Positions 21,330 through 38,316 of a stretch of 64,000 bases of DNA are shown here, piece by piece. Position numbers and translations under genes: made by a program. Position 1 is the stretch's first letter. Every line of letters begins with the position of its first letter. The stretch is taken from contig JAHDEG010000006.1 in assembly GCA_020628935.1 (NCBI GenBank), positions 142,986 through 206,985 of the forward strand, written 5' to 3'. This DNA is from Flavobacteriales bacterium. GTDB taxonomy: Bacteria > Bacteroidota > Bacteroidia > Flavobacteriales_G > JALEGO01. The notes beneath the pieces are model-generated. The model saw nothing but the letters and a program-made list of their open reading frames with translations. It made no database searches and was not told the DNA's origin.

Positions 21330-23834
21330 ATGGGTTTTATATCCTTATTTAAACCTTACCTAAAGTATTTAATTGCTTTAATAGTTTTTTTTGCGCTTAC
21401 CGCAGGATTCACTTGGCCAACCTTTATGGGTAAAACCATTGATCAGCCTGATATTGTGCGCTTTAAAGCAATGTCTAAAGAACTTAGAGATTTCCGAACA
21501 GATACAGGAGAAGAAGCGCTGTGGACAAACAACATGTTCTCTGGTATGCCAGCCTATCAAATTTCTGTTGTTTACAAGGGTAATTTGTTGCAATACATTA
21601 CTAAATCTCTCGGCTTAGTTTTTAAGCATCCTGTTTACGCGCTTTTTATATCAATGTTGTGTTTTTACATTTTATTGTTAAGCTTTAAAGTTGATTATCG
21701 TTTAGCAATAGTTTGTGCAATTGCATATGCTTTTTCTACCTACTTTATTGTTATACTCAAAGCGGGTCATAACTCTAAAGCTATTACATTAGCTTATTCT
21801 CCATTGGTTTTTGCAGGGTTTGTAAATGCATTTAAAAGTAAATATTGGCTCGGGTTCTTTTTAACTTGTATTGGTTTATCCATGAGTCTAAGTTCTGGTC
21901 ACCCACAAATGACCTACTACCTCGCAATAGTAATCCTGTTTTATGTAGTTTTTGAATTTTATAATCACATCAGAAATAAGCAAATTAAAAATTACTTTAT
22001 TGGAGTAGCGGTTGTTTGCTGTGCAACACTACTTGCTATTGGTACAGATTACGCCAGGTTTTCTTCCTCTTACAAATATGCTAAACAGAGTATTCGTGGT
22101 GAGGGTAGGCTTGCTAAACCATCCTCACAAATAAAAAAAGAAGGGCTAGATTGGTCGTATATAACAGACTGGAGTTACGGAGCAACAGAGACGCTAACGT
22201 TAATGATTCCTAATTATAAGGGAGGAATATCTGAACCAATGGTTATTGATCATAAAAAAGTTCTTAAAAAAATTCCCCCAGCGTTTAAAAAACCAGTAGG
22301 TCAAATTGATGCTTATTACGGTAATCAGCCGTTTACCGAAGGGCCAGTTTATGTTGGTGCGTTCATTGTATTCTTATTTGTATTTAGCCTTTTCATATTA
22401 GATAATTACCTTGCATGGAGCTTGATTGTAGCCCTAACGTTGTCTATAATGCTTGCTTGGGGCAAATACCTTATGCCGCTTACAGCGTTTTTTATAGAAA
22501 ACATTCCCTTTTATAACAAGTTTAGATCAGTGTCTTCCATATTGGTAAACGCAGAGCTTATACTGCCCATTATGGCTGCTTTAGGCTTAAGTCATATAGC
22601 TAAAAACTTAGAAACTATTCACCCCAAGTTCAAAAAAGCATTTTTTTGGAGCCTTCTAATAACTGCTGGTTTTTGCCTTGTGTGCTACATAATGCCTACA
22701 TGGATAAACACGTTTGATAGAAGTAACGAATATGAAGATTTACTATACTCATATATGAATTTTTCTAACGCAAATAAGCCAGAAGAATATTGGGCTAAAT
22801 TTTTAAGTGCTATGCACCCCTATTTAGTAGATGCAAGAGTCGCTATTTTTAAAGCAGATGTAATACGTTCTTTTTTAATAATTATACTAGGAAGCATTTT
22901 TTTGTGGCTTTTTGTAAAACGAATTATTAAGCTAAATTTATTTGCAATACTTATTGGTGTGCTTATTACAGCCGACTTAATAAATGTAAACCTTAGGTAT
23001 TTAAACACAGATAACTACGTGAGTGAAAAATCACTTAACACACGATATACACCAACTCCTACCGACTTAGAAATATTAAAAGATACCTCATTATATTACC
23101 GAGTACTTAATACTACTACCCCACTCGATAATGATGCACGCACCTCATATTTTCATAAAAGTGTGGGAGGATATCATGCAGCAAAACTGGGTAAATATCA
23201 AGATGTAATTGATCTATATTTAAATAATGAGAGATTACAAGCAGGCTCACTACAACCACAAGTGGTAAATATGCTTAATGCAAAATACATTATTAAATAT
23301 GATACCTTGGGGCGCGAAGTAGTTCAAAAAAATAAAAAAGCATTAGGCAACGCATGGTTTGTAAGTAGTTATAAGCAGGTTAATTCTCCTACAGAAGCAC
23401 TTGAGCAATTAGCCCATATAAACGTAGAAAACGAAGTGGTTTTGATCGGTGAAACAGCTAATATGCTACCAACAGTTTTAATGAAAGATAGCAACGCTGT
23501 TATTAATCTAAACGAATATCAACCAAATTATTTAAAGTATACTTACCAGTCAAATACACAAGCATTGGCTGTTTTTTCAGAAGTGTTTTATGAGGAAGGA
23601 TGGAATGCCTATTTAGATGATAAGCCATTTGACTATTTTAACGCAAACTATATTTTAAGAGCGGCATTAGTACCAGAAGGAAATCATATGGTAGAGTTTA
23701 AATTTGAACCTCAACATTTTTATTTCGCTGAAAAAGTCTCCTTAGCTAGCTCCATCGTATTTATAATTATACTTTTTTCTTATTTGGGAGGAAGGATGAT
23801 TGCGTATTTCAAAAAAAAGGAACTTACGAGTTAA
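21330..23834 (+). CDS. YfhO-family membrane protein (putative GT-C), paralogue 1
   Basis: WTNNMFSGMP, NKFRS, GGYHAAKL, NMLNAKYII, ALGNAWFV, FSEVFY..GW, ANYILRA. Confidence 0.9.
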   Translation: MGFISLFKPYLKYLIALIVFFALTAGFTWPTFMGKTIDQPDIVRFKAMSKELRDFRTDTGEEALWTNNMFSGMPAYQISVVYKGNLLQYITKSLGLVFKHPVYALFISMLCFYILLLSFKVDYRLAIVCAIAYAFSTYFIVILKAGHNSKAITLAYSPLVFAGFVNAFKSKYWLGFFLTCIGLSMSLSSGHPQMTYYLAIVILFYVVFEFYNHIRNKQIKNYFIGVAVVCCATLLAIGTDYARFSSSYKYAKQSIRGEGRLAKPSSQIKKEGLDWSYITDWSYGATETLTLMIPNYKGGISEPMVIDHKKVLKKIPPAFKKPVGQIDAYYGNQPFTEGPVYVGAFIVFLFVFSLFILDNYLAWSLIVALTLSIMLAWGKYLMPLTAFFIENIPFYNKFRSVSSILVNAELILPIMAALGLSHIAKNLETIHPKFKKAFFWSLLITAGFCLVCYIMPTWINTFDRSNEYEDLLYSYMNFSNANKPEEYWAKFLSAMHPYLVDARVAIFKADVIRSFLIIILGSIFLWLFVKRIIKLNLFAILIGVLITADLINVNLRYLNTDNYVSEKSLNTRYTPTPTDLEILKDTSLYYRVLNTTTPLDNDARTSYFHKSVGGYHAAKLGKYQDVIDLYLNNERLQAGSLQPQVVNMLNAKYIIKYDTLGREVVQKNKKALGNAWFVSSYKQVNSPTEALEQLAHINVENEVVLIGETANMLPTVLMKDSNAVINLNEYQPNYLKYTYQSNTQALAVFSEVFYEEGWNAYLDDKPFDYFNANYILRAALVPEGNHMVEFKFEPQHFYFAEKVSLASSIVFIIILFSYLGGRMIAYFKKKELTS

Positions 23835-23846
23835 ACGTATACAGCA

Positions 23847-24425
23847 TTGATAGAAACATTAAAAAATAACCTGGAAGCATCAATTGCAATTAAGCAACAG
23901 ATACTTGATGATGATACTTTAATACAAAATGTAAATGATGTATCAATCTGTTTAATAAAGGCGTTTAAAGCCGATAAAAAAGTGTTTTTTTGCGGAAACG
24001 GTGGAAGTGCCGCAGACGCTCAACACATTGCAGCAGAACTATCAGGAAGGTATTATTACGACCGTGATCCATTATATGCAGAGGCATTACACGTAAACAC
24101 ATCCTATCTTACAGCAGTTGCAAATGATTATTCATATGATGAAATATATTCTAGAATGATAAAAGCAGCTTGTGACAAGGGAGATGTTCTTGTGGCATTA
24201 TCGACTTCAGGTAATTCAAAAAATATAATAAGAGCATTAGAACAAGCTAAAGCTCAGAATATGATTATAATAGGGTTTAGTAATGAGGATGGAGGAAAAA
24301 TGAACGGTTTATGTGATATCCTTATAAAAATACCAAGTAAAGACACGCCAAGAGTACAAGAGTGTCATATGCTTTTATTGCATTCCGTTTGTGAGGATGT
24401 TGAGTTAGCAATGTTTCCTAAATAA
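23847..24425 (+). CDS. gmhA: Sedoheptulose-7-phosphate isomerase
   Basis: CGNGGSAADAQH, ANDY, STSGNS, PRVQECH; TTG start. Confidence 0.93.
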   Translation: MIETLKNNLEASIAIKQQILDDDTLIQNVNDVSICLIKAFKADKKVFFCGNGGSAADAQHIAAELSGRYYYDRDPLYAEALHVNTSYLTAVANDYSYDEIYSRMIKAACDKGDVLVALSTSGNSKNIIRALEQAKAQNMIIIGFSNEDGGKMNGLCDILIKIPSKDTPRVQECHMLLLHSVCEDVELAMFPK

Positions 24426-24431
24426 GCCGCA

Positions 24432-25727
24432 ATCAAAAAAGTACTAATAATAACCTACTATTGGCCTCCGAGTGGTGGTGCTGGTTTTCAGCGCTGGCTA
24501 AAACTGAGTAAGTATTTATCCAAACAAGGGGTTGAAGTACACGTGTTAACTGTTGATCCTGATTACGCATCATATCCGTATTTAGACGACTCAACAGAAA
24601 AGGAAGTACCCAACTCGGTAAAGGTTTATAAAACAAAAGCCACCAATTACTTTAGTGTATATAAAACCCTTTTTAGAAGAAAAACCGTGCCTCACAGTGG
24701 TACATTTAATACCGAAGGAAGCAGTTTTTTGAATAATTTAGTAAATTGGGTGCGCTCAAATGTATTTATACCTGACCCTAGAGTAGGTTGGAATAAACAC
24801 GCAATCAAAAAAGCAAAAGAAATAATCCGCCAAGAAAAAATTACTACCGTAATTACAAGTAGTGCACCCAACTCCACCCATTTAATAGGTTTATCCCTCA
24901 AAAAACAATTTAAAAACTTGTATTGGATTAGTGACTTTAGAGATGCTTGGACAAAAATAGATTTTTATCAAGATTTAAAACTTACTACCTGGGCAAACAA
25001 AAGACATCATTCGTTAGAAAAGCAAGTGCTAAACAAATCAGATTTAATAACCACTATAGGTAAAACGCTGGCGTCTGAATTTTCAGAGTTAACTAATACT
25101 CCTGTAAAAGTTATTTCGAATGGGTATGATAGTGACGATTATACATTAGAAGGCACTACACCAACAAATTTATTGTCAGTTGTGTATACCGGTAGTATTA
25201 ATGAGAAGAGAAACCCAATCGCTTTGTGGAAAGCTTTAAACGAGCTTAACAATGAGAATGAGAGTTTATATAAAACATGTAAAATTGATGTGTATGGAGA
25301 AATACATCCTTCCGTAAAACAAAGCATAAATAAGTTGAGCTTAGAAAAAATAGTTAACATACACGCCAAGGTTAATCACAAGCAAATTGGAGGGATTCAA
25401 AAGAAGGCAGATGTGTTGTTGTTAATTATTAATGACGTGAAAAGCTCAAAACACATTTTAACGAGTAAAATATTTGAATATTTTGGAGCTCAAAAATCTA
25501 TTTTAAACATCGGGCCAACCAAGGGCGATGCAGCTCAATTAGTTGAATATACAAAGTCAGGACTCACCTTTGATTACAAAGACACACAAGGGATAAAAAA
25601 ACACCTTAAAAACAGTATGGCGACTAAAAAAGAAAATGGTACGTTGATTTACCATGGAAATGAAACTAATTTAAGAATGTTCACACATACTACGCTAGCC
25701 AAAAAATTGGTTGATGTTATTAAATAG
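24432..25727 (+). CDS. GT4 glycosyltransferase; N-terminus extends upstream of the tracked start, to a likely ATC
   Basis: The same frame upstream of 24543 reads IKKVLIITYYWPPSGGAGFQRWLKLSKYL; downstream are IPDPRVGW, SDFRDAW and SKIFEY. The start position is inferred. Confidence 0.85.
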   Translation: MKKVLIITYYWPPSGGAGFQRWLKLSKYLSKQGVEVHVLTVDPDYASYPYLDDSTEKEVPNSVKVYKTKATNYFSVYKTLFRRKTVPHSGTFNTEGSSFLNNLVNWVRSNVFIPDPRVGWNKHAIKKAKEIIRQEKITTVITSSAPNSTHLIGLSLKKQFKNLYWISDFRDAWTKIDFYQDLKLTTWANKRHHSLEKQVLNKSDLITTIGKTLASEFSELTNTPVKVISNGYDSDDYTLEGTTPTNLLSVVYTGSINEKRNPIALWKALNELNNENESLYKTCKIDVYGEIHPSVKQSINKLSLEKIVNIHAKVNHKQIGGIQKKADVLLLIINDVKSSKHILTSKIFEYFGAQKSILNIGPTKGDAAQLVEYTKSGLTFDYKDTQGIKKHLKNSMATKKENGTLIYHGNETNLRMFTHTTLAKKLVDVIK

Positions 25728-25845
25728 TTTCTGCAAACTCGCATTTTTTCAAAAAACACAGGGTTATTACTTTTAAAAAAATAATGGTTAATTTAGGGTG
25801 ATAATAAATAGGAGAGCAAAAATGCGCAGTTATTAAAAGAATAAA

Positions 25846-26604
25846 ATGAAATACAAAGATAGAATCCCGAAAGATCTTTTCAATGACAATGGACACTATA
25901 ATGGTAGGCCAGCCGATTTTGATGATAGAATAGTTATTAGGAGACTTAATTTGGTTAAAAATATTCCCGATTTTGTTAATAAGAAATGTACACTATTAGA
26001 TATTGGATGTGGGAATGGTGCTTCAATGTTTTTGCTTTCTGATAAAATGAAAGAGTGTGTCGGAATAGAAGTGTCTGATACGTACAGTGAAGAGTTTAAT
26101 GCATACAAAAAAAAAAACAATATAGTAAATTGTAAATACATAATTAGCGATGTAGTTGAAAGTAAACCAACAGAGCAATTTGATCGAATTATTAGTTTCG
26201 AAGTAATAGAACATTTATCAAATGAAAACGGTATTAAATTCTATTACGAATCCCTTAAAAAAGGTGGAATGCTCGCTGTATCTGTGCCCAACAAGTGGTG
26301 GATATTTGAAACCCATGGTGCTAAATTACCTTTGCTCCCTTGGAATAGAGTTCCCTTTTTTTCTTGGTTGCCTAGGGTCATTCATGAGAGATTTTCCAAT
26401 GCAAGAATTTATACAAAAAAAAGGATTACAACACTTTTAGAAAAAAACGGTTTTAAAGTACTAGATTGTCAGTATGTAACCGCTCCAATGGATGTGCTGC
26501 CTGAAGGAAAAACAAAAAAATGGTTAATTAAAAATATCTTTAATTCAGATACAACTAAAATACCATTTAAAGCAACATCAATTTTCATAACTGCAAAAAA
26601 GTAG
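25846..26604 (+). CDS. Class I SAM-dependent methyltransferase
   Basis: LLDIGCGNG (motif I), FEVIEHL, LKKGG..AVSVPN. Confidence 0.88.
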   Translation: MKYKDRIPKDLFNDNGHYNGRPADFDDRIVIRRLNLVKNIPDFVNKKCTLLDIGCGNGASMFLLSDKMKECVGIEVSDTYSEEFNAYKKKNNIVNCKYIISDVVESKPTEQFDRIISFEVIEHLSNENGIKFYYESLKKGGMLAVSVPNKWWIFETHGAKLPLLPWNRVPFFSWLPRVIHERFSNARIYTKKRITTLLEKNGFKVLDCQYVTAPMDVLPEGKTKKWLIKNIFNSDTTKIPFKATSIFITAKK

Positions 26605-26606
26605 TC

Positions 26607-27737
26607 TCATAAGGATTTTTCGAATACTAATATTTTTCTTGCAAACACATCCCAACTATAACTTTTTTTATCATGCTTAATGTTTTTAGAGAATTCTTTG
26701 AACCTGTTTTTTTGAAAAAAATCTAAAAGACAATTTGCAATCTCTTGTGGGTCCTTATTGCATAAATATCCAGTTTTGAAGTTCTTGACAACCTCTGGTA
26801 AACCCCCAACATTAGTGGCTAAGATAGGTCTGTTGAAATGCATTGCCATTGGAGCTATTCCACTTTGACTTGCGCTATTATATGTTAATGATATTATATC
26901 ACAAGCAGAAAAATAAAATTTTAGTTCTTTATCTTCAATAAAGTGATCTATAATATGAACTCGGTCGGTGAGGTGGTTTGTGCTAATATAACTTATATAC
27001 GAATCTTTATTATCGTAAAACTCACCGGCAATAATTAAATCAGTGTTAGGTAGCTGCTCAGAAATTAATTGAATTGCCTTGAGGGTTAAGTCTAAGCCTT
27101 TATATTTTCTTACCAAGCCGAAAAATAAAATATAGTTTTTTTGTGGATTTAATTTTAAATGTTTTTTTGCAGTAATTTTATCAATCCCTCCTTCTAAGTT
27201 ACTATTTATGGGGTGTGGATATGTCAGTTGAGGTTTAATCGAAAACAATAATAATTCAGCCCTTACTTTATCTGACATTGTAATGAATCCGTTGAAAGAG
27301 TTTAAGAAATAATTGGTGAAAAGCTTATCGCCTAGTCTGTTTTCATGTGGTTTTATGTTATCACATAATGCTATTAATTTAGTGTTTTTATTAATTAACC
27401 TGGCTATTGTACCCAAGCACGGTGCCAAAAAACTTAACCAATATCTTACAATAACTAAGTCGGGATTAAGCTTATTTATTTTTCTAGCAACTAAAATCCA
27501 ATTTATAGGATTTACAGTGTTAATTAAACGTTCGATTTTTAGCGGTTTATGGCTCTGTTTATTCTTTCTAAACTGTGTTTTTCCTGGAAATAAAAATTTT
27601 GGGTACTGAAGTTTAAAGGTGATTATTGAACTATTTACTCCACAATTGTTTAACGCTGTACATAAAGACTCATTCGTGTCTGAAATGCCACCTCTGTAGG
27701 GGTGGGCGGGGCCTATAATTATTGTTTTTTTACTCAA
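26607..27737 (-). CDS. GT4 glycosyltransferase
   Basis: GPAHPYRGGI, FFGLVRKYKGL, SASQSGI, TNVGGLPEVV. Confidence 0.9.
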   Translation of the reverse strand: MSKKTIIIGPAHPYRGGISDTNESLCTALNNCGVNSSIITFKLQYPKFLFPGKTQFRKNKQSHKPLKIERLINTVNPINWILVARKINKLNPDLVIVRYWLSFLAPCLGTIARLINKNTKLIALCDNIKPHENRLGDKLFTNYFLNSFNGFITMSDKVRAELLLFSIKPQLTYPHPINSNLEGGIDKITAKKHLKLNPQKNYILFFGLVRKYKGLDLTLKAIQLISEQLPNTDLIIAGEFYDNKDSYISYISTNHLTDRVHIIDHFIEDKELKFYFSACDIISLTYNSASQSGIAPMAMHFNRPILATNVGGLPEVVKNFKTGYLCNKDPQEIANCLLDFFQKNRFKEFSKNIKHDKKSYSWDVFARKILVFEKSL

Positions 27738-27747
27738 CCCTAATGCT

Positions 27748-28476
27748 TTATTTAATTTTTAAGCTCTTAAATACAATATAAACATGAGACAATAAAGTAG
27801 TCAGAATTCCATAATGATGAATATAAATCTTGAATCTTTCTTTTAACCCTGTAATTCTTTTTTGAGAAGAAGTGCCTCCATTCAAATACTTGGAGATTAT
27901 TATGCCGGTATTGTGAATTTTTTCTGCTTTTTTTAAAATCTTAATACTCCAATCTATATCGGAAGATATTTTATAGGATATATCGTAATCGACACAAAGA
28001 GTTCTTTTAGCAATAAATGACTGATGACAAATAAGCATTCCTCTACTATAATCTTTCCAAGTCAATGTTCTTGGCGGCCGATGTTTACTAAGACCAATTA
28101 CATTATTAAAGTCATCGACAACTTGCATATCTCCATAATAAACATCAGCATTTTGTACTGTTGCAAAAACAGAAGAAACCGTTGATTCAGAAAAAAACCG
28201 ATCCCCTGAATTCATAAAAAGAACATAATCTCCCTTAGCTTGGTGAAGGCCTTTATTCATAGCATCATAAATACCTTTGTCAGGCTCACTTACGATTGAG
28301 TCAATATTGTTTTTGTATTTGGTAACAATATCCATTGTATCATCGGTTGATCGACCATCAATAATTATGTACTCAATGTTCTTGTAGGTCTGCTCAATAA
28401 CACTTTTTATAGTGTTTTCTATATAGCTTGCGGCATTATACGCTATTGTTATTACCGATAATTTTGGAGAAACCAT
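27748..28476 (-). CDS. GT2 glycosyltransferase (WcaE-like)
   Basis: IDGRSTD, SEPDKGIYDAMNKG, FMNSGD, ICHQS. Confidence 0.9.
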   Translation of the reverse strand: MVSPKLSVITIAYNAASYIENTIKSVIEQTYKNIEYIIIDGRSTDDTMDIVTKYKNNIDSIVSEPDKGIYDAMNKGLHQAKGDYVLFMNSGDRFFSESTVSSVFATVQNADVYYGDMQVVDDFNNVIGLSKHRPPRTLTWKDYSRGMLICHQSFIAKRTLCVDYDISYKISSDIDWSIKILKKAEKIHNTGIIISKYLNGGTSSQKRITGLKERFKIYIHHYGILTTLLSHVYIVFKSLKIK

Positions 28477-30915
28477 TTAATCCTTTATTTTGCTAATTGC
28501 AGATTTTATATTCCAACCAATAGAGCCAAATATTGAAAGTAAAATTAAAGAAGAACATAAAGTAGATATCCAACCACCTTTAGCTTCTGGTTCAAAGGAA
28601 AAAACTACTTTGTGAGTTCCTTTTGGTATTGATAACCCTCTTAAAATATAATTCGCTCTTATCATTTCAGTTGGTTTACCATCTATTGAAATTTTCCAAC
28701 CTTTATTAGGACCATACCAAACCTCAGAAAATATAGCTAGCTGGTTAGAGTTGGAATTAGACGTATATTCCAAATAACCTGGTTCATAATAGCTCAATTT
28801 AATATCTCCTTTGCCGTCACCAACTTTAATGTCTTTAAGTTGATCCTCAAATTCATTTTTGAGAATTATAGCCGTATTTTGCGGATTAAAACTAGAATCA
28901 CTCATTGAGCGTATTTCCTCATTAGGTGTTTCAACATATCTAACGCCTTTTACAAACCAAGCATTACCCAATGCTTGGTTGTTAACTTGCAATTGTTGCT
29001 TTTGACCAATAATATATTTTGTATTTAACATATTTAAAACAGGCATATTAAACTTGCTAATGTGATAATCAATCATATCTTGATACCTCTGGAGCTTTGC
29101 TGCATGATAACCACCAATGGTATTGTGAAATACAGAACTTGAATTTGAATTAAATGTGTTTATAGATAAATCTAAGACTCTATAAAATCCCCTGCCTTTT
29201 GGTTCAAGACTAAGTATTTGTTGATCTATTGGCCGTTTAACAAATTCACTGTTCGTTTTTTTAATCCTCGTCCAGCTATCTTCATCAATATACCTTCTGT
29301 TTACTAGCCATAAATCTGCCAATGTAATTACAAATAATAAGCATAACATCATATTTTTATTAGTGATTTTTTTAATAACAAAGGCATAAATAACAAGTGC
29401 TAAAGCGATAGTAAAAAACAATGACCTTAAACAATCAGCTTTCATAATTGCTTTTCGAGTATTGATAAACACATCAATAATTTCTGCTTGGTAACGAGCA
29501 TCTTGTTCACCTGTAAAGGTTAGAAAAAGCGGACCAAACAACCATACTAATAAACAAATACCAGCAGCAATTATAGCACTTATTACTACAGGTTTTTTAA
29601 AGGTTGGTTTCTCTTTTGACTGTATTATGGTATTAAGAGCCATTAAACCAGGTATTGCAAAGAAGGCGGGCACAATATTCATTACCGAATTAGGTGATCT
29701 AAATTTGTTGAACAAGGGTAGATTATCAAATAATAGTCGGTTTAAGAACTCCGCATTTTTACCCAAAGAGATTAAACATATCGTAGTTATAGCAGCTAAA
29801 AAACTAAAAGAATATTTCTTTTCGATAACAAAAAAAGAGAGCACAAATAAAAACAATGAAAGCATTCCTAGGTAGTAAGGTCCACTTGTAAATGGCATAT
29901 CACCCCAATACATGGGTGCTTGATAGGTTCCATCCTTTTTCTTTTTGGCACCATTTTGCTTTAGCAGCTTTGCTGTTTCACTGTCTGAGGGGATTTCTTC
30001 ATTGGAGGATCCTCCCATAATTCTTGGAATAAATAAACTCAACAAATCGGGAGTACTATTGCTCCAACTCATGGCGTAATTCCAGTCTAGGCCCTCTACT
30101 TGACTACTACTTGAAGGCTTCTCATTTTTTTCTGATGACAATATGGGTTTACCCCTCATTGTATCTTCCGAAAACGTCTTAGATGAATAAAGCTGAGCAA
30201 AATTTGCACCAGCACCTATAATAGCTGCAAATAATGCAACAAAAAGGCCTTGAAACAAAAATTTGAAAGAATAATCAGGGCTTTTTATTAATGAAATTAC
30301 ATACGTTATTACAAAAACAATAAATGTTAAACCTAAGTAATAAACCATTTGAATGTGATTAAACATAATTGCAAGACAAGTACCTAGTGCAACAAGTATA
30401 AAACCCAATACCAACTTCCGTTTTAAGCATAATAACAAACCAATAATTAGCATTGCAAAACAACTCACTACCCAAATTTTTGTTTGATGACCCGCCTCAG
30501 TAAGCACTATATAATTAACATTAAATGCGACAAGTAATGAACCGACTATAGCCAGCAAGGGTTCTATTTTAAAAACTAGTAACGATGTAAATGTTAGTAT
30601 ACACAACATGAGAAACGTACCTAACGGATAATCAAACCCGAGAAATAATATGCTTCTTGTATTTAAAGAATAAATAAGATTATTATTACTACCATGGCCT
30701 AATAAACCTGTTGGTGTGCCTGAAAAAATAGAACTAGACCAAGTGTTTTGTTTTCTCTTTTTTTTCGGGGACTCTTGAAACTCTTTTACGACTATTTTCG
30801 CAGAAATATCATCATTAGAGTTAAGTGTAAAGTTTTTTAGAGCTGGTCCAAAAAACACAAAAAAGGGAACCAATAATAAAATCAATGTCCCAATAACTAA
30901 TCCTGCTTTTTTCAT
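28477..30915 (-). CDS. YfhO-family membrane protein (putative GT-C), paralogue 2
   Basis: Same motifs as paralogue 1: NKFRS, GGYHAAKL, NMLNTKYII, ALGNAWFV, FSEVWY, ANYILRG. Confidence 0.9.
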   Translation of the reverse strand: MKKAGLVIGTLILLLVPFFVFFGPALKNFTLNSNDDISAKIVVKEFQESPKKKRKQNTWSSSIFSGTPTGLLGHGSNNNLIYSLNTRSILFLGFDYPLGTFLMLCILTFTSLLVFKIEPLLAIVGSLLVAFNVNYIVLTEAGHQTKIWVVSCFAMLIIGLLLCLKRKLVLGFILVALGTCLAIMFNHIQMVYYLGLTFIVFVITYVISLIKSPDYSFKFLFQGLFVALFAAIIGAGANFAQLYSSKTFSEDTMRGKPILSSEKNEKPSSSSQVEGLDWNYAMSWSNSTPDLLSLFIPRIMGGSSNEEIPSDSETAKLLKQNGAKKKKDGTYQAPMYWGDMPFTSGPYYLGMLSLFLFVLSFFVIEKKYSFSFLAAITTICLISLGKNAEFLNRLLFDNLPLFNKFRSPNSVMNIVPAFFAIPGLMALNTIIQSKEKPTFKKPVVISAIIAAGICLLVWLFGPLFLTFTGEQDARYQAEIIDVFINTRKAIMKADCLRSLFFTIALALVIYAFVIKKITNKNMMLCLLFVITLADLWLVNRRYIDEDSWTRIKKTNSEFVKRPIDQQILSLEPKGRGFYRVLDLSINTFNSNSSSVFHNTIGGYHAAKLQRYQDMIDYHISKFNMPVLNMLNTKYIIGQKQQLQVNNQALGNAWFVKGVRYVETPNEEIRSMSDSSFNPQNTAIILKNEFEDQLKDIKVGDGKGDIKLSYYEPGYLEYTSNSNSNQLAIFSEVWYGPNKGWKISIDGKPTEMIRANYILRGLSIPKGTHKVVFSFEPEAKGGWISTLCSSLILLSIFGSIGWNIKSAISKIKD

Positions 30916-30920
30916 AGCTA

Positions 30921-30928
30921 CAAATATA
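30921..30928 (-). promoter_or_regulatory. -7 promoter element (TATATTTG), possibly leaderless
   Basis: TAnnTTTG ends 5 nt before the ATG at 30915. Confidence 0.5.
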
Positions 30929-30983
30929 ACGGTTTTGGTTTCTCATTAAACACTCCGTAATTAATTATTGTCAACCACTACTA

Positions 30984-32162
30984 TTAACTTAAAGCTTTTT
31001 TATAAACTTTGTTATATTCTCCAATTACCTTTTGCTCTGAATAATAGTTCCTTGCATTTAAAGAAATATTTTCAGGTAGCATTTTGCCTTCTTTTTTCAT
31101 CTCCAAAGCATCTAAAATGCCCTTAGCTAAGGTTTTACCCGACTTGTTATCAACCAAAATTCCATTTACTTTGTGGTCTATCATATTCTCAATCCCACTC
31201 GTTTTGAAACCAACAACTGGGGTACCGCAAATATGACTTTCAACAATAGTATTGGGTAAGTTATCTTCGATTGAAGATATAACATATACACTTGCAGCCG
31301 AATAAATCTTGGCTAACTCAGCTGTAGAAGATATATATCCTAAAAATTTAAGGTTTTTGTGTTTACTGAGGTCAGAATTCAGTGCTATGTTTCCAAGAAC
31401 ATTAATTTGTATATCGTCATCTAAGTAATCTAAAGCTTCTAAAAAATATTTAAAGCCTTTTCTTGGATCATTAACATTTTCCGCAACAAAGAGTATGATA
31501 GGGTCCTGTGATTTATGGAGTTCATTGTTTATATTAAATGACTCCGTATCTATACAATTAGGTATTCTACTATGAGGAAAACCCGATAATACTTCGCTAA
31601 CTTCTGATAATTCTTTGAGCCATTTAGAAGGTGAAACAATGTGAATGTTTTTATTAAGCACTGCTCGTTTTTTAACTTGGATGAAGCGTTTTTCTAAATC
31701 AATTAATTTATCATTCATCATAGATGTATAATGCATTCCCCCTTTAAATGGATTCATATCGTGAAGAGTCCAAACAATTGGTTTGTTGATGTTTTGAAAA
31801 AATGTTGGTATATCAATAAATTTCACCGTAGCATGAAAGTGTATAATATCAGCTTCTGTGACTAGCGGATGGTTATGTACTTTTAGTAGACTTTCTGGCC
31901 TATTAAAAAAAACTTGACGATTAAATTTTACGGGTAGTTGGTTGTAAGCTTTATTTAAGAACAAAATTAGTTTTGAAATTAGTTTCCCATATTTCTTGAT
32001 TAAAAAATCATCATAGTAACTTATCTCTGATTCTTTACGCCCCTTAGGTTTAAGTGCTAAAAACGAAGAATACAACCCACTCGTTTTTTGAGCCCGGTAA
32101 ATTCTTTTTGCAGCATTTGCAGCACCTCCACTATCCCAAGTGTTTATGTGTAAAATTTTCAT
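30984..32162 (-). CDS. GT4 glycosyltransferase (WcaC-like)
   Basis: GGAANAA, WTLHDM, DPRKGF, EDNLPNTIVES. Confidence 0.9.
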   Translation of the reverse strand: MKILHINTWDSGGAANAAKRIYRAQKTSGLYSSFLALKPKGRKESEISYYDDFLIKKYGKLISKLILFLNKAYNQLPVKFNRQVFFNRPESLLKVHNHPLVTEADIIHFHATVKFIDIPTFFQNINKPIVWTLHDMNPFKGGMHYTSMMNDKLIDLEKRFIQVKKRAVLNKNIHIVSPSKWLKELSEVSEVLSGFPHSRIPNCIDTESFNINNELHKSQDPIILFVAENVNDPRKGFKYFLEALDYLDDDIQINVLGNIALNSDLSKHKNLKFLGYISSTAELAKIYSAASVYVISSIEDNLPNTIVESHICGTPVVGFKTSGIENMIDHKVNGILVDNKSGKTLAKGILDALEMKKEGKMLPENISLNARNYYSEQKVIGEYNKVYKKALS

Positions 32163-32244
32163 TAGGATTTCTGTAAAACATCCGGTTTTTGAGCATTAGT
32201 TTAGACCCTGTATAATTAATCGTTTTTGAGTTGAAAAGTAATTA

Positions 32245-33072
32245 TTAACTGGTTTTATTAAAAGAAATACCAATTCCCGCACCTGGATACCAATGATTGG
32301 ATGGATTTTCTTTAAAAAACAAAAAATTCCTATCGTTTTCCAAAGAAAAGAATGAAAGTTTATCTGTTGAGTGTGAATTATCCCCAAGAATAACAGAATT
32401 TTTATTTAACAAAGGCTTAATAGTATTGTATTCACGATATTCATATTCAGAGGAATGATCGCTATCATTAATAAATAAGTCTATACTTTCTTTAAAGGCT
32501 GATAACGTTTTTATCGAATCACCATATTTAATTTCTCCAAACTCTTTATATTTTCCAGACAAAAGATACCCCGCACGTGAGTTTATATCAGTTCCATAAT
32601 ACTTTCCTGAAAAACCTTCTAAAATGTTCTTTTCTAATGCTGCGCATAATAAAACTGCTCCCATTCCTTTATCGACACCAGTTTCAACAATTACTTTTGG
32701 TTTTATAGCCCTGGCAAATGCATACCAACCTAACCTCCTTCCAAAACGGACTCCGCTATCCGCAAACACCTTTTCCTTTGAATTTGCTGTAGTTAAAACC
32801 ACGTGTTCAAATAAGTCTTTATTCTGTTCTACTTCTTTGAAATATGCCAGTATGTGCGAGACATCTTTTTTTGTAACTATCGCTATGTTTTGAGCTAGAC
32901 TTACTAAGTTATCGCCTGTTAAATCATAAGTAAAATTAGTGTCTTCCTTGGAAGTAAAACCCCATTTTACAATTTGAACATATTTTCTATTATAATACTT
33001 AGTTGCACTATAGATACGTCTGAAAAAATTTAATATCCAAATTCGCTTTAGTAAGTTTAAAATTTCTTTCAT
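32245..33072 (-). CDS. Class I SAM-dependent methyltransferase (Methyltransf_24-like)
   Basis: IVETGVDKG, GDSIKTL, IDLFINDSDHS. Confidence 0.8.
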   Translation of the reverse strand: MKEILNLLKRIWILNFFRRIYSATKYYNRKYVQIVKWGFTSKEDTNFTYDLTGDNLVSLAQNIAIVTKKDVSHILAYFKEVEQNKDLFEHVVLTTANSKEKVFADSGVRFGRRLGWYAFARAIKPKVIVETGVDKGMGAVLLCAALEKNILEGFSGKYYGTDINSRAGYLLSGKYKEFGEIKYGDSIKTLSAFKESIDLFINDSDHSSEYEYREYNTIKPLLNKNSVILGDNSHSTDKLSFFSLENDRNFLFFKENPSNHWYPGAGIGISFNKTS

Positions 33073-33324
33073 AATAAATAATACGCTAAATTTTTTCTAA
33101 AATCACTAAATCATTGATGTAATCTGCAATATTAATTAATTTATGATTAAGGTAATCATACTTAATAGTGGAATTACTAATAAAAATTTATATCTAGTAG
33201 ATTTTCTCAATTACCTTTTTTTAGGTAATTTGACTCTTTTGGCATTTTGCAAAAACCCCTTTAGCTACAGTAATATACTTTGTAAGTCAGTAGAAATAAC
33301 TTTACATTAAATGTTACATCAGGT

Positions 33325-34041
33325 TCACTTAAGAACGTTATTTGTGTTATTGAAACTCCTATTATTGATAAATGAGATTTCTTCATAAGAGTCAGATACA
33401 GCAAAAATCTCATACCCGTGTTTCTTCATCTTTTTTATGAGGGCTTTACTTTTTGCTCGGCCATTTTCAAAAAATCTCTCGTGAAGCTCTATTGCCATTT
33501 GATCAATTTGTATCCTTTTTTCTAAAATGCTTTCAATTACATCATACTCCGATCCTTCGATGTCCATTTTTATGACTGCTATTTTTTTATGCTTTAACAA
33601 TTTACAAATATCTGAAAATGATTTCATCTGTACTTCGACTGTATTTTTTTGAGATACATTTTTTTGAGGCACCAAACTGCCAGAAACATGTTCACTATTT
33701 ATAGGAAGGTGAAAATTGGTCTTACCTGTGTTTTTTGAAATACCAAATTCATGGAACTTGAACGTTTCAGGAAGGTCGTTGTTTAAACACCAATTTATAG
33801 ATTTAGGTGTTGGATCAAAACCAAATACTTTGCACTTATGCTCTTGTATGACTTGTTTATCAAAAGATATATCTTCGCCTATTCCAAAAGAATAAACAAT
33901 AGATTGTTCATTTAGTAATTGCGGATTTAAGTAGAATCCTCCGTAATTATTTCCATACCATCTAGACTCACAATTAACCGACTTTTTAATGTGGCTGTAT
34001 TTTAATGGGTATATAAATTTTTTTTTTATTTTTTTAAGCAT
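33325..34041 (-). CDS. FkbM-family methyltransferase
   Basis: YSFGIGEDISFD, FDPTP, KMDIEGSE, IELH. Confidence 0.88.
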   Translation of the reverse strand: MLKKIKKKFIYPLKYSHIKKSVNCESRWYGNNYGGFYLNPQLLNEQSIVYSFGIGEDISFDKQVIQEHKCKVFGFDPTPKSINWCLNNDLPETFKFHEFGISKNTGKTNFHLPINSEHVSGSLVPQKNVSQKNTVEVQMKSFSDICKLLKHKKIAVIKMDIEGSEYDVIESILEKRIQIDQMAIELHERFFENGRAKSKALIKKMKKHGYEIFAVSDSYEEISFINNRSFNNTNNVLK

Positions 34042-34145
34042 TTATTTAACCTTAAGTATTATTCAAAAAATTTTAAATGGAGTTGAAATCTTTTCTAATT
34101 AATGTCTTTAAATTTCTAAAAGAATATGTGATTACAGCATGAGGT

Positions 34146-35051
34146 TTATTTTTTGATACCAATAAAAGTATTCAACCGAAGTCTTATACACCATAATAAA
34201 AGCTTAGATTTGGACTTTTGACTTCTATAAAAAATCTTTTGATTAACTCCTTCTTGAGTATTTTCATAATTTGAATCAAGTATTTTAGGTAATACTTTAG
34301 CTACGGTCTGTGATTGCCCTTTTATGGTGTGAGTTGCATCTAATCCAAATCCTATGTTTTCAATTAAATTATAATTAGGTGTTAAACATAGTCCATTGTT
34401 TTTTAAAATAGTGTATGTCCAAAAATAAGCCCAGGAATCATTCTTTCTTGCTTTGGTCTTTCTAAACTTATCAATTAAATAAACTCTCGATAAGTAATTA
34501 GGAAGGGTTGATTTAAAAATTTTAGACTTAGAAAATGTTTCTAAATCGTTCATATTTCTATCGAATTTATTCCAAGCTCTTTTCCATGTAGCCCAACCCC
34601 AACAAAGAGATAGGTTTGTGAAAAAAGGAGTTTCGAACTTATTTCTAGTTGCCTTTTCAATAGGGTTATAACCACCTATTTGGTATATGTTTAGAGTGTC
34701 TTTATATTTCAATAAATTATGCTCAACGTAATCAAAGAAGTTAATATGTGGCAAACAATCATCTTCTAATATTATACCGTATTCTTCATTTTCAAAAAGC
34801 CAATCAATCGCTGCTATTACTGAATTTCTACAACCCAAATTATTTAGGTTATACTTCTTAAACACTTTACATTCCCAGCTTATATTGGCTATTAACTCTT
34901 TAACTTTGTTGATTTTTTTTTCATCAAGGGCGTTTCTAGGACCATCAATATTAACATATATTGTGCTGGGTTTTATTAACTCTAATCTAGATAATAGCTT
35001 CCTTGTTATCTCTGGTCGATTAAATAATAATAAAAGAATTGGGGTTTGCAT
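34146..35051 (-). CDS. GT-A fold nucleotide-diphospho-sugar transferase
   Basis: LFNRP, DGPR, NLGC, IILEDDC, WGWATW, NLIENIGFG; TTG start. Confidence 0.85.
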   Translation of the reverse strand: MQTPILLLLFNRPEITRKLLSRLELIKPSTIYVNIDGPRNALDEKKINKVKELIANISWECKVFKKYNLNNLGCRNSVIAAIDWLFENEEYGIILEDDCLPHINFFDYVEHNLLKYKDTLNIYQIGGYNPIEKATRNKFETPFFTNLSLCWGWATWKRAWNKFDRNMNDLETFSKSKIFKSTLPNYLSRVYLIDKFRKTKARKNDSWAYFWTYTILKNNGLCLTPNYNLIENIGFGLDATHTIKGQSQTVAKVLPKILDSNYENTQEGVNQKIFYRSQKSKSKLLLWCIRLRLNTFIGIKK

Positions 35052-35094
35052 TTTAAAAAAACGAATAAAATTTTTATAGCTCCAATAAAACTAA

Positions 35095-35991
35095 TTAATA
35101 ATTAATTCCATTCACCTTTATTAGTTTAGCCTTTTTCAATTTTGCTTTGACAAATTCTAAGTCCCTAATAAAGATGGTATTATGATCTATGATATCCTTA
35201 TCAATATTTAGTTTAATTAACTTTCTTCCATCTAATGGTAAATATTTGAATGGAATAAACCCAACATCATCTAATAAACTAAATATACTAGCTTCATTTA
35301 GTTCATATTTGTTAGCCAAACCGTTAGTTTCTATTATAATCGCTTTTAATTCTGGGTTCAGTAGAACCGCTTTTGATCCTTTTAAAACATTTACTTCATA
35401 GCCTTCAACATCAATCTTTATTAAATTTGCATTTTTTTGCTCTAACAATATATCTAAAGTAGTTTTTACTACTTCAAATGATGAAACACTTGAGTCTTCT
35501 TTTCTAATTATTCTATTAACCGCCTCTAAATTTTGAGTGAAAAGAACATTGCCAGGTTTATCCCCTATGGCTTTTTCAATGACTTCAACTTTGTTAGAGA
35601 GACTGTTGATTTTTATATTTTCTTTTAGAATACTTAAAGTCTCTTTTGAAGGCTCAATAGCTATTACTTTAGCATTGGAAACACCCGCGGCAAGTATTGT
35701 ATAAACTCCAACATTTGCTCCAACATCAACAAATGTATCGTTATGATTTAAAAAATGCAACAGAAAACTCATTTCACTAAAGTCATTTAATGAGTTAAAA
35801 TACTGTAATTGAGAACTGGTCGATTTTTTTCCTACCAAAAGCTTTGTTTCGTGAATATAGTTGTGAATGAACATTGCTTCTTTATTTAATCTCATATACA
35901 ACCCAAGAATAAAATAATTAAATAAGCTTTTGAGCTTTCTTTTTTGATTTAGGGGATGACTTATTGTCTTTTTTATATCTTCTATTACCAT
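35095..35991 (-). CDS. FkbM-family methyltransferase
   Basis: FVDVGANVG, IEP, KIDVEGYE. Confidence 0.9.
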   Translation of the reverse strand: MVIEDIKKTISHPLNQKRKLKSLFNYFILGLYMRLNKEAMFIHNYIHETKLLVGKKSTSSQLQYFNSLNDFSEMSFLLHFLNHNDTFVDVGANVGVYTILAAGVSNAKVIAIEPSKETLSILKENIKINSLSNKVEVIEKAIGDKPGNVLFTQNLEAVNRIIRKEDSSVSSFEVVKTTLDILLEQKNANLIKIDVEGYEVNVLKGSKAVLLNPELKAIIIETNGLANKYELNEASIFSLLDDVGFIPFKYLPLDGRKLIKLNIDKDIIDHNTIFIRDLEFVKAKLKKAKLIKVNGINY

Positions 35992-36131
35992 ATGATTATT
36001 ATACTAGGAATATGTACATTAAAATTATCAAGTTTAAAGGGTTGCTGGCTTTGGTTTGAAAATAACGCAATCGTAAATAAAACTACGTAAAAAGTTAACA
36101 ACATAATAAATGAGTTCTCACCTACGTAAAT

Positions 36132-36749
36132 TTAAACTCCAAGGCAATTTTCTTGCCTGTATAATAATGTAGTTGTGTTTGACTGACCATAACAAGGTAG
36201 TAACCCGTAAAAATCAATTTTTTTAAACCCTAAACAAAGTAAGTCACTAATTCCTTCTTGATATTGTAGCCGCTCAGAATTATCCCAAATTATAACACCT
36301 GTGGGAGTTAGTTTTTGCGGAGCAAGTTTTGAACATTCAACTCGATTTCTGCCATCAATAATTATTACATCATATAAATCTGAGGTTTCCGAGATTGATT
36401 CAACGTAGTTATTGTTTAATGCTCTAAATAAGTATTTTACGTTTTCAAACCATTTTTCATCGTGTTCTACAGAAACAATATTCTTGATTTTACCTGATAG
36501 CCATATAGTCGAGTTCCCACTGCCATATTCAAATACTGACAACTCTTTAGTCAATCTGTCCTTAAGGAATTCAATAGCTGAAATTGTAAACCATGGAATT
36601 GGATTTCCAGCAGCGTCTACAGGCATCATTTTAATCACACTTTTGTTCCACCCACTTTCTTTTAGGTAGTTTTTTGATAAAAAAAACAAGGTTAAAATGT
36701 ACCTTGTTATAGAAAACTTAGAGATGAGCTTTATTATTGTTTTTTTCAT
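36132..36749 (-). CDS. SAM-dependent methyltransferase-like protein
   Basis: PWFT, FEYGSGNST, SVEHD..W, IIDGR.R, WDNSER. Confidence 0.8.
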   Translation of the reverse strand: MKKTIIKLISKFSITRYILTLFFLSKNYLKESGWNKSVIKMMPVDAAGNPIPWFTISAIEFLKDRLTKELSVFEYGSGNSTIWLSGKIKNIVSVEHDEKWFENVKYLFRALNNNYVESISETSDLYDVIIIDGRNRVECSKLAPQKLTPTGVIIWDNSERLQYQEGISDLLCLGFKKIDFYGLLPCYGQSNTTTLLYRQENCLGV

Positions 36750-36754
36750 TTATC

Positions 36755-36762
36755 CAAAAATA
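36755..36762 (-). promoter_or_regulatory. -7 promoter element (TATTTTTG), possibly leaderless
   Basis: TAnnTTTG ends 5 nt before the ATG at 36749. Confidence 0.45.
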
Positions 36763-36819
36763 TAGTAAACATTGTTTATCTCATTAAAATAAGTAAATTT
36801 TATTAGCATTAGTTTAAAT

Positions 36820-38316
36820 ATGTCAACCATAAAATCACAAACTATAAAAAACACCATAATCGATTATTTTGGAATTGGTTTAGGGTTTTTAAATATGAGC
36901 ATATTATTCCCTAACATGCTTAGTAAAGAAGAATTAGGGTTGAGAGGAATAATTATAACCCTTGCAACAATAGCAGCAAATTTTTCAACATTAGGATCAA
37001 CATCTTTATTGCTCAGGTTTTTTCCTTTTTTTAAATCAAAAGATAAAAAACATCAAGGATTTCTATCATTAATACTAACTATAGGATTAGTTGGCTTTTT
37101 TATATTATGTGTCCTAAGCTATGTTTTTCAGCCATTAATTTTTTCGTCTTATGCAGATAAATCTCCATTAATAGTTGACTATTTTTGGTTTGTGATTTTA
37201 GCCTCTTTTGGACTGCTTTATTGTAACATACTAAACAACTACTTCTTTATTTTACTTAAAACGGTCGTTTCCTCATTTTTTTTACATATTGGTTTGAGGT
37301 TCATTTGGCTCATTCAAGTCCTCCTCTATTTTTACGAAGTCATTGATTTTAATGGTTTTATCTGGCTGTTAACATTCAGTTATTTCATTCAGTTATTTGG
37401 CCTAATAATTTATGGTATTTATTTAAAACAGATAAAACTGTCCTTCACTTTACCTAAGATTAGTAGGAAATTAAAAAAAGTTATGATAAATTATAGTTTG
37501 TTCGCTATTGCTACTGGTTATATTGGAATGATTGTGTCTAGTATTGATCAGCTTATGATAGCATCATTACTAGGTACTGCTCCTATTGCTGTTTACTCAA
37601 TAGCCTATTATTTAAGCAATGTTATAACCGTGCCTGGAAGATCTTTAACTGTTATTGCATCACCGGTCATTTCATACCAGATTAAGCGGAAAGATTTTAA
37701 ACCTCTCAACAGTATATATAAAAAATCATGTGTAAATATGGGTGTTAGCGCTGGCTTTGTGTTTCTAATTATATGGGTAAATATTTCTTCATATATACAA
37801 ATACTACCTGAAGGCTACAGTGACATAAAATATGTAATGCTATTTTTAGGATTAGGTAGATTCTTTGACTCTTTAACAGGTACAAATGCTCAAATTATTG
37901 GATTAAGTAAATATTACAGATTTAATTTATACTCTGGAGTGCTACTTATTGGTATTACTGCATCGTTGAACTGGATTCTTATTCCCTCACACGGATTAAT
38001 TGGAGCGGCTTTTGCAACTGGGATAACACTTTTATTATTTAATACCATGAGAACGTTATTTGTTAAATATAAAATGAACATGTGGCCTTACACATTAAAA
38101 AGTATTCTTAAAATGTTAACCTGTATCATTCCTCCCTTTTTATTTAGCTTTTTTATTAAAATAAGCTCAGGAAATATTTATATAGATGTGTTTGCTAATA
38201 CCTCATTGTATTCACTAATATTTGGCACTCTACTAATCCTTCTCAAGCCTTCTGATGAAATTCATGAAATAATTGTTAAACACTGGAATAGATATATTCC
38301 TTACAAATTAGAGTAG
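36820..38316 (+). CDS. Wzx-type oligosaccharide flippase (MOP superfamily)
   Basis: About 12-14 TM helices; IDQLMI, YSIAY, LIPSHGLIGAAFAT. Confidence 0.88.
   Translation: MSTIKSQTIKNTIIDYFGIGLGFLNMSILFPNMLSKEELGLRGIIITLATIAANFSTLGSTSLLLRFFPFFKSKDKKHQGFLSLILTIGLVGFFILCVLSYVFQPLIFSSYADKSPLIVDYFWFVILASFGLLYCNILNNYFFILLKTVVSSFFLHIGLRFIWLIQVLLYFYEVIDFNGFIWLLTFSYFIQLFGLIIYGIYLKQIKLSFTLPKISRKLKKVMINYSLFAIATGYIGMIVSSIDQLMIASLLGTAPIAVYSIAYYLSNVITVPGRSLTVIASPVISYQIKRKDFKPLNSIYKKSCVNMGVSAGFVFLIIWVNISSYIQILPEGYSDIKYVMLFLGLGRFFDSLTGTNAQIIGLSKYYRFNLYSGVLLIGITASLNWILIPSHGLIGAAFATGITLLLFNTMRTLFVKYKMNMWPYTLKSILKMLTCIIPPFLFSFFIKISSGNIYIDVFANTSLYSLIFGTLLILLKPSDEIHEIIVKHWNRYIPYKLE

Follow-up and report, generated by a model that had tools for sequence, protein, structure and literature searches.

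What do two YfhO proteins do in one glycan locus, alongside a flippase and a set of glycosyltransferases (GTs) and methyltransferases? The locus that raises this question occupies positions 21330-38316 of a 64,000-nt stretch of contig JAHDEG010000006.1 from a Flavobacteriales bacterium; we call the whole stretch the window. The genome has two yfhO genes only, and both lie in this locus. According to the literature on Bacteroidota glycosylation, hundreds of periplasmic and surface proteins of this phylum carry glycans, and the enzyme responsible for attaching them has been sought for more than 15 years (PMC12871550; 10.64898/2026.07.27.740950). The value of the locus is that it sharpens a testable answer to this question.

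We found that yfhO is linked across the phylum to one GT4 orthologue, a gene encoding a YYWPP motif (here GT4w), and to one subfamily of Wzx flippases. We found no publication that reports this linkage. With moderate confidence, we suggest that the locus is the bacterium's general protein O-glycosylation cluster, in which YfhO would transfer a Wzx-flipped methylated glycan to proteins and the twin copies would be redundant or tuned to glycan variants.

The neighbourhood of yfhO across the Bacteroidota

We selected one genome per species, which gave 80 named yfhO loci, and searched these with the window genes using tblastn. A co-directional GT4w orthologue was found 3' of yfhO in 38 of the 66 loci with at least 3 kb of downstream sequence, and in 28 it lay within 600 bp. 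Among the 45 loci with 8 kb or more of sequence on either side, 21 had Wzx within 10 kb of yfhO. Across all 80 loci, GT4w was present within 10 kb of yfhO in 40 and Wzx in 31, compared to a PgfS-like GT2 in one. As a control, 17 window genes from outside the locus had matches in 0-1 of the 80 loci.

The usual order was yfhO-GT4-wzx, as found in Flavobacterium, Flagellimonas, Gillisia, Leeuwenhoekiella, Psychroflexus, Mangrovimonas and Maribacter, and in metagenome-assembled genomes of Bacteroidales and Marinilabiliales. The pairing of yfhO with GT4w extended beyond the class, to 4 of 8 outgroup loci of the phylum, and 7 of 12 close relatives had Wzx in the vicinity of yfhO. The original prediction, made from the window's sequence alone, had proposed looking for co-occurrence of yfhO, the YYWPP GT4 and wzx across the Bacteroidota, and these counts show that the three are linked. 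Our literature search found no paper naming YfhO together with wzx in this phylum. The neighbourhood evidence also points to tractable Flavobacterium species in which yfhO, GT4w and wzx are adjacent, as in loci L085 and L099.

GT4w was single-copy in 100 of 150 class genomes (E≤1e-35). Among the 49 genomes with both positions available (G414 was left out), GT4w lay less than 1 kb from yfhO in 31, less than 2 kb in another two and elsewhere in 16. The yfhO-linked Wzx genes appear to form one subfamily. All 30 such proteins tested from other loci matched the window Wzx (99-250 bits) far better than the two other Wzx-like genes of the genome (at most 56 bits), in a comparison that is partly circular because the proteins were retrieved with the window Wzx as query.

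Other genes of the locus were also found near yfhO. In two genomes of the same family, a gmhA homologue lay close to the single yfhO (within ~1.5 kb), at a distance of ~120 bp in G001 and ~1.3 kb in G004. Homologues of the GT2 that abuts YfhO-B (38-53% identity) were near a single yfhO in 5 of 12 relatives and 3 of the 80 named loci, and GT4b occurred together with this GT2 near yfhO in loci L032, L035, L092 and L118.

YfhO as a candidate glycan transferase

The two YfhO proteins are candidate GT-C enzymes. As originally described, they are convergently encoded paralogues of about 820 amino acids (aa) with the motifs NKFRS, GGYHAAKL, ALGNAWFV and ANYILR in common. The open reading frame (ORF) positions and our alignment agree with this; the two are 32% identical over 830 aligned residues (E 5e-125). 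In an alignment of 73 homologues, 40 columns were invariant, including all four motifs and D41 of the motif Q-x-D-I. D41, conserved in 73 of 73 homologues, sits in a 72-residue loop (22-93) after the first hydrophobic segment. This loop is probably extracytoplasmic, as expected for the conserved acidic residue of GT-C enzymes. A crude hydropathy scan gave 10 segments in YfhO-A and 12 in YfhO-B, with a soluble region of ~245 residues before the last segment (in YfhO-A, 247 residues at 556-802). This fits the large multi-pass architecture with a C-terminal extracytoplasmic domain of Pfam YfhO proteins. The overall layout of both is GT-C-like.

YfhO-A scored above the gathering cut-off of Pfam YfhO (PF09586; 28.5 bits), and YfhO-B fell 0.1 bits below it. 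In both paralogues the match was limited to the C-terminal ~100 residues, corresponding to profile positions ~735-830. Of 51 homologues, 50 matched PF09586 at E≤0.1 (best 2.5e-14), and the precomputed database annotation assigns PF09586.17 to both proteins. A profile search of 1.84 billion representative proteins recovered 51,576 YfhO family members at E≤0.001, 25,224 at E≤1e-10 and 4,320 at E≤1e-30, and a language-model (Atlas) search with YfhO-A returned YfhO clusters only. Pfam detected no Wzy_C or STT3 domain in YfhO-A, YfhO-B or 49 homologues, even at E≤0.1.

What might these enzymes transfer? A Pfam scan of the locus ORFs found no Wzy, Wzz, Wza/Wzc, WaaL or priming phosphoglycosyltransferase, confirming what had been noted from the sequence alone; their counterparts are present elsewhere in the genome. 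A wzx gene with multiple GT and methyltransferase genes, but no polymerase or export genes, is the composition by which general O-glycosylation loci are recognized, and the locus has it. The same composition, with no polymerase or chain-length gene, is found in the Bacteroidota O-glycosylation loci of Bacteroides fragilis (LFG) and Tannerella forsythia, and the glycans published for such loci are short and specific to each species. In Elizabethkingia and F. johnsoniae, the O-glycan contains three methylated sugars. The 27-kb T. forsythia cluster, which has been dissected experimentally, is described as containing wzx, five Gtf genes (gtfSMILE) and three Mtf genes (mtfJOY) (PMC6120980). A 2025 review states that Bacteroidota O-glycans are commonly methylated and gives the oligosaccharyltransferase (OTase), the ligase and the core flippase as undiscovered (PMC12871550). 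The gene order is where the locus differs: published loci are outlined as metG-wzx-...-two conserved GTs, with yfhO unlisted in those outlines, whereas here two yfhO genes lie inside the locus and metG is not adjacent. No methionyl-tRNA synthetase was found by Pfam among ORFs of at least 90 aa at 6371-63874; a tryptophanyl-tRNA synthetase is encoded at 13314-14282.

In the favoured scheme, a phosphoglycosyltransferase encoded outside the locus would prime synthesis, and five cytoplasmic GTs (three GT4s, the GT2 and a GT-A-like enzyme) would build a short oligosaccharide of roughly six sugars on undecaprenyl diphosphate. Four or five S-adenosylmethionine (SAM) methyltransferases would O-methylate the sugars, gmhA may supply a heptose, and the dedicated Wzx would flip the completed lipid-linked glycan. 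In the periplasm, a YfhO-type GT-C enzyme would then transfer it, most likely to Ser or Thr in a D-(S/T)-hydrophobic sequon of exported proteins. Our results show the gene content, the homologies, the conserved neighbourhood, the rarity of twin copies and the sequon enrichment; which donor and acceptor are used, whether the glycan is moved en bloc and what each YfhO copy does are inferred. The proposed job is the same as that of PglL, PglB and WaaL, which transfer a Wzx-flipped undecaprenyl-diphosphate glycan en bloc to a periplasmic acceptor, but YfhO belongs to a different family, as the lack of Wzy_C and STT3 domains indicates.

The sequon is enriched in the exported proteins of this genome. 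In a count on 1588 crudely called ORFs, sorted by a heuristic rule for signal peptides, D[ST][AILVMT] occurred 1293 times in 481 signal-peptide-like ORFs where 793 were expected (ratio 1.63), and 744 times in 834 cytoplasmic-like ORFs where 745 were expected (ratio 1.00). Control motifs, in which D was replaced by E or N or the residue order was inverted, showed no such gap between exported and cytoplasmic proteins. This agrees, as indirect evidence, with the phylum-wide enrichment reported in the review (PMC12871550).

The original interpretation is partly supported by these results. An unpolymerised, multiply methylated, Wzx-flipped oligosaccharide is still the best reading of the locus, and the yfhO-GT4-wzx linkage and sequon enrichment make the YfhO proteins the best candidates for the periplasmic transferase, which had been proposed as a ligase or OTase. 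Conversely, the locus cannot be called an undescribed system. Clusters of wzx, GT and methyltransferase genes are already known as Bacteroidota O-glycosylation loci (PMC6120980), and a bioRxiv preprint of July 2026 already puts forward Bacteroidota YfhO, as an in silico prediction, for the missing O-OTase (10.64898/2026.07.27.740950). The central idea is therefore not new, though it is unproven. The arguments given in the preprint are an HHpred match to yeast PMT (98% probability), wide conservation, predicted essentiality and 12 membrane spans; the neighbourhood evidence is an argument independent of these. The Bacteroidales YfhO proteins of the preprint belong to the same family, with the Segatella, Butyricimonas and Limibacterium proteins falling in the A-side clade of our tree, and they too are multi-pass, near-universal in the class and usually single-copy. 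The yfhO genes described there adjoin sahH or mtnN-luxS, while here and in most non-Bacteroidaceae lineages sampled the neighbours are GT4 and Wzx.

Several points weigh against YfhO as the general OTase. The case made in the preprint is in silico only, and the same source reports YfhO to be absent from Porphyromonas gingivalis and some Alistipes (10.64898/2026.07.27.740950). Since P. gingivalis is described as having a large O-glycoproteome (PMC8729774; site counts in PMC10897501), YfhO would not be a universal OTase unless a divergent copy was missed. The Firmicutes YfhO enzymes that have been characterised are reported to use undecaprenyl-phosphate monosaccharides as donors, not oligosaccharides (PMC5836110, PMC8035078), and the Bacteroides LFG as described in the review does not list yfhO (PMC12871550). 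Pfam similarity of the two YfhO proteins is weak and confined to the C-terminus, and sequence and profile searches of the PDB found no YfhO relatives (the best match, at E 1.7, was an unrelated helix-turn-helix protein). GT4w was missing from 50 of the 150 class genomes at E≤1e-35 and was not found at E≤1e-20 in any of the three same-family relatives tested. It was not found in G001, G002, G004, G006 or G198, all five of which have a window-type Wzx. Finally, the priming enzyme is absent from the locus, the sequon count is crude, and a Wzy_C-Wzz-Wzx trio on another contig (C5) has no neighbouring GTs and might, in principle, use a unit from the YfhO locus as its substrate.

Related to the reported absences, a group of genomes of family f89/genus g201 (1.8-2.3 Mb) matched the YfhO C-terminal domain only weakly (E 1e-13 to 1e-27). 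These genomes may encode a divergent YfhO below the Pfam gathering threshold.

The alternative that survives best, although we consider it unlikely, follows the Firmicutes. A GtrB/PgfS-type GT2 would make an undecaprenyl-phosphate-monosaccharide that is flipped, and YfhO would add single sugars to an attached glycan, or the first sugar to Ser/Thr like PMT, while the Wzx-flipped oligosaccharide would be attached by another protein. This is the sole YfhO chemistry known from experiments in the sources consulted (PMC5836110, PMC8035078), and the HHpred match given in the preprint is to PMT, a monosaccharide-donor enzyme (10.64898/2026.07.27.740950). With the Firmicutes three-component systems (CsbB-GtcA-YfhO; PgfS-PgfM1-PgfE-PgfM2 of Streptococcus mutans), our proteins have in common the C-terminal Pfam similarity, the GT-C-like topology and an acidic residue in the first outer loop. 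Beyond the C-terminal ~100 residues, similarity to Firmicutes YfhO was undetectable with Pfam. The window also encodes a full-length PgfS/ArnC-like GT2, 11 kb upstream, and homologues of this GT2 were near yfhO in L028, L111 and L136. Unlike in the Firmicutes systems, however, a GtrB-type GT2 was linked to yfhO in only one of the 80 loci, and the genes linked instead encode Wzx and a GT-B enzyme. The PgfS-like GT2 of the window moreover adjoins a candidate GT-C of its own, an 8-segment tetratricopeptide repeat (TPR) protein with a weak PMT_2 match. No GtrA/GtcA-type flippase was seen in the locus, though no search was aimed at one.

The PgfS-like GT2 appears to belong to a second, separate GT-C module at 9495-13258, together with a 241-aa GT2 and the 685-aa membrane protein. 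This module resembles TMTC/PMT-type lipid-monosaccharide glycosylation and is an alternative candidate for protein O-mannosylation.

A second alternative, which we consider still less likely, is that the locus makes lipopolysaccharide (LPS), capsule or another lipid-linked unit for ligation or polymerisation by Wzy_C proteins from other parts of the genome, with YfhO modifying or ligating a lipid-anchored glycan instead of proteins. The classical role of gmhA in LPS-core heptose fits this idea, as does the fact that the protein acceptor is one that we only infer. The genome contains three Wzy_C-family genes. One is in a capsule-type locus (C16:88-106 kb) with Wza, Wzc, a WecA-type primer and four GT4s (five counting an ORF without a Pfam match), and one is in the C5 trio (C5:169-173 kb of the genome, G000; L142:9423-13414), which lies between pheT and a SpoIIE-type phosphatase gene in GT-free surroundings. 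The third is at C4:11 kb. The polymerase and exporter machinery thus sits in separate loci with its own context: the C16 locus has its own GT4s and primer, and the C5 trio its own Wzx. In addition, yfhO, GT4w and the Wzx subfamily are conserved throughout the class at close to one copy per genome, which is not expected of variable O-antigen or capsule genes, and the sequon is enriched in exported proteins.

Candidates for priming include a WbaP-like phosphoglycosyltransferase at C16:24.5 kb, and four PF00953 proteins are encoded in the genome. The heptose pathway could be traced in part, with a GmhB-like match on C14 (113.8 bits, cut-off 149.6) and an HldE-kinase-like match on C20 (317.6 bits, cut-off 345); no HddC was found above cut-off in the genome.

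Two YfhO clades in one locus

Two YfhO-like membrane proteins reportedly serve protein O-glycosylation in S. mutans. We looked at how common twin copies are among the Bacteroidota. With full-length queries, YfhO was found in 39 of 40 close relatives, always as one gene, and none was found in the remaining relative; double matches were pieces of one ORF. With the C-terminal 255 residues as query, YfhO was found in 391 of 400 other class genomes. Two matches were obtained in 18 genomes, an upper bound for twins that includes one clear case, G569; the unpublished genomes G414 and G475 are counted here. A single copy is therefore present in at least 373 of the 391 YfhO-bearing genomes. Twin YfhO genes are thus rare, occurring in at most 18 of 400 class genomes and in none of the 40 close relatives.

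We next placed the twins in a FastTree phylogeny of 140 sequences, rooted on eight proteins from other classes. YfhO-A falls in a clade of 83 rows that includes the copy of the same-family genome G002. YfhO-B falls in a separate clade of 39 rows (support 100), where its sister is the sole YfhO of the same-family genome G001 (support 97; 49% identity) and that of G004 is basal, beside Saprospiraceae and Chitinophagales sequences. The divergence of 32% identity and the separate deep clades rule out a recent tandem duplication as the origin of the twins. Because the single copy of G001 and of G004 is of the B clade and that of G002 is of the A clade, either clade can provide the sole YfhO within one family. 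The clades have 95 strongly conserved columns in common, and only five of 100 discriminate between them. Both twins keep all invariant residues, and GT4w and Wzx accompany both clades (for example L120 in the B clade).

Another same-class genome, G198, has two full-length YfhO genes 350 kb apart (C1:211154-213580 and C1:564414-566882; L128 and L127). No GT4w, GT2 or Wzx was found within 9 kb of either. Since these two are each other's sisters in the tree, they derive from an independent, lineage-specific duplication.

The twins of the window also have different neighbours. In the 92 loci examined, the gene next to yfhO was GT4w or else the 242-aa GT2 (frequently accompanied by GT4b), and the two were never found together. 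The window joins the two cassettes: YfhO-A is accompanied by GT4w, YfhO-B by GT2 and GT4b, and there is one Wzx in common. In the favoured reading, two YfhO proteins from two old clades would perform the same reaction, and the normally alternative cassettes yfhO-GT4(YYWPP) and yfhO-GT2-GT4 would have merged around one Wzx, so that the second YfhO would be redundant or tuned to a glycan variant. The twin copies indeed look isofunctional. Considering that each clade is the sole one in same-family genomes and that nearly all conserved residues are the same, redundancy or specificity for glycan variants fits better than an OTase-plus-ligase pair. For the same reasons, the earlier suggestion that the two YfhO proteins serve different acceptors finds no support. 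The companion suggestion, that these candidate transferases may handle two glycan variants, would agree with the different partner GT found beside each copy. Whether variants of YfhO and of the glycan correspond is a question for which the locus provides a natural experiment, relevant to glyco-engineering and to surface variation in marine and gut Bacteroidota.

In a bolder version, yfhO-GT4(YYWPP)-wzx would be the core machinery of Bacteroidota O-glycosylation, providing the transferase, the first committed GT and the flippase. The twins would then be non-redundant, each matched to its adjacent GT (A with GT4w, B with GT2), giving two glycoforms or a core plus an outer glycan, possibly as a PMT1/PMT2-like heteromer. 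We consider this version improbable.

The weakest alternative is that the paralogues split a two-step model as OTase and ligase, or form an obligate heterodimer like PMT1/PMT2; published models as outlined do posit an undiscovered OTase and an undiscovered ligase (PMC12871550, PMC6120980), and each copy adjoins its own partner GT and keeps all invariant residues, but we find it improbable given the single YfhO of nearly all genomes, on which no general two-enzyme scheme with two YfhO proteins can rest, the occurrence of either clade alone in one family, the presence of only five discriminating columns and the separate duplication behind the G198 twins.

Gene content and surroundings of the locus

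The genome is 2.13 Mb in 22 contigs and 82% complete, and the G+C content of the window is about 32%. Of the genes first proposed for the locus, gmhA, three GT4s, the GT2, four methyltransferases and Wzx are backed by Pfam or NCBIfam, whereas weak matches suggest the fifth methyltransferase and the GT-A transferase (Table 1). The hydropathy scan found no hydrophobic segments in the GT2 next to YfhO-B. No Rfam family matched anywhere in 19000-40000.

Table 1. Genes of the YfhO locus and of the apparent second GT-C module, with window positions
Gene	Position	Strand	Description	Evidence
YfhO-A	21330-23834	+	834-aa multi-pass membrane protein, candidate GT-C glycan transferase, A clade	Pfam YfhO 33.2 bits
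gmhA-like	23847-24425	+	sedoheptulose-7-phosphate isomerase	SIS_2 E 6.6e-24; NCBIfam GmhA E 1e-49 to 1e-58, all below cut-offs
GT4w	24432-25727 (probable ATC start)	+	'YYWPP' GT4 glycosyltransferase	Pfam Glyco_transf_4 38 bits
Methyltransferase	25846-26604	+	class I SAM methyltransferase	Methyltransf_23/11/25/31 E 1e-11 to 1e-12
GT4a	26607-27737	-	GT4 glycosyltransferase	Glycos_transf_1 E 5.8e-22
GT2	27748-28476	-	242 aa, soluble, WcaE/TuaG-like, abuts YfhO-B	Glycos_transf_2 E 1.1e-25; WcaE E 1.1e-24, below cut-off
YfhO-B	28477-30915	-	812-aa paralogue, B clade	Pfam YfhO 28.4 bits
GT4b	30984-32162	-	GT4 glycosyltransferase	Glycos_transf_1 E 9.8e-22
Methyltransferase	32245-33072	-	Methyltransf_24, CmcI/rhamnosyl O-methyltransferase-like	PF13578 E 8.9e-17
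Methyltransferase	33325-34041	-	FkbM family	PF05050 E 5e-16; TIGR01444 above cut-off
GT-A-like	34146-35051	-	probable GT-A fold glycosyltransferase, 301 aa	weak GT25 match E 0.029; Atlas match 0.98 to 'nucleotide-diphospho-sugar transferase' clusters
Methyltransferase	35095-35991	-	FkbM family, RfbT-like	PF05050 E 3.7e-15; V_cholerae_RfbT E 4e-11; TIGR01444 101.9 bits
Methyltransferase	36132-36749	-	probable fifth methyltransferase, 205 aa, weak support	Pfam Methyltransf_24 E 0.022; PDB 3cvo 'methyltransferase-like protein' E 1.6e-4
Wzx	36820-38316	+	flippase of the yfhO-associated subfamily	Polysacc_synt 30.6 bits; 11 hydrophobic segments
PgfS/ArnC-like GT2	9495-10418		full-length, two C-terminal hydrophobic segments	NF047588 E 5.7e-76, below cut-off
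GT2	10415-11140	-	241 aa	
Membrane protein	11201-13258		685 aa, 8 hydrophobic segments, C-terminal TPRs	weak PMT_2 match (E 0.002)

The start of GT4w is unusual. The YYWPP motif is at 24456, upstream of the ORF called with ATG, GTG or TTG starts (GTG at 24543). An N-terminus containing YYWPPSGGAG is in frame right after the gmhA stop, where ATG, GTG and TTG are absent. GT4w therefore probably starts with ATC at 24432, seven bases past the gmhA stop, giving a 431-aa protein that homologues of 424-435 aa cover to 100%. Both the standard ORF call and the 394-aa gene call of the database omit 37 conserved N-terminal residues. An alternative explanation is an ATG-to-ATC assembly error.

The lowest G+C content of the locus is at 34001-38000 (0.277-0.300, compared to 0.32-0.40 in the flanks). 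Such values are typical for variable glycan genes and are consistent with exchange of this part.

Upstream of the locus, an OmpA-like gene (20306-21313) was rejected as a member of the system, with a homologue in none of the 80 yfhO loci. At the start of the window, an ORF of more than 2122 aa (1-6366, minus strand) runs past the window start. The window also encodes type IX secretion cargo, recognized by Por_Secre_tail domains (Pfam), which places its source in the Bacteroidota. One such protein is found just beyond Wzx, a 1174-aa M36 fungalysin-type metalloprotease with PA, MAM-like and Por_Secre_tail domains (38867-42391, minus strand), which is followed by genes for a polyprenyl diphosphate synthase (42486-43454) and RmlA (43455-44315; TIGR01207 above cut-off). 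Near the far end, a GT87-family (GT-C) membrane glycosyltransferase adjoins an arylsulfotransferase-like protein with a type IX secretion C-terminal domain (61186-62370 and 62360-63874, both on the minus strand).

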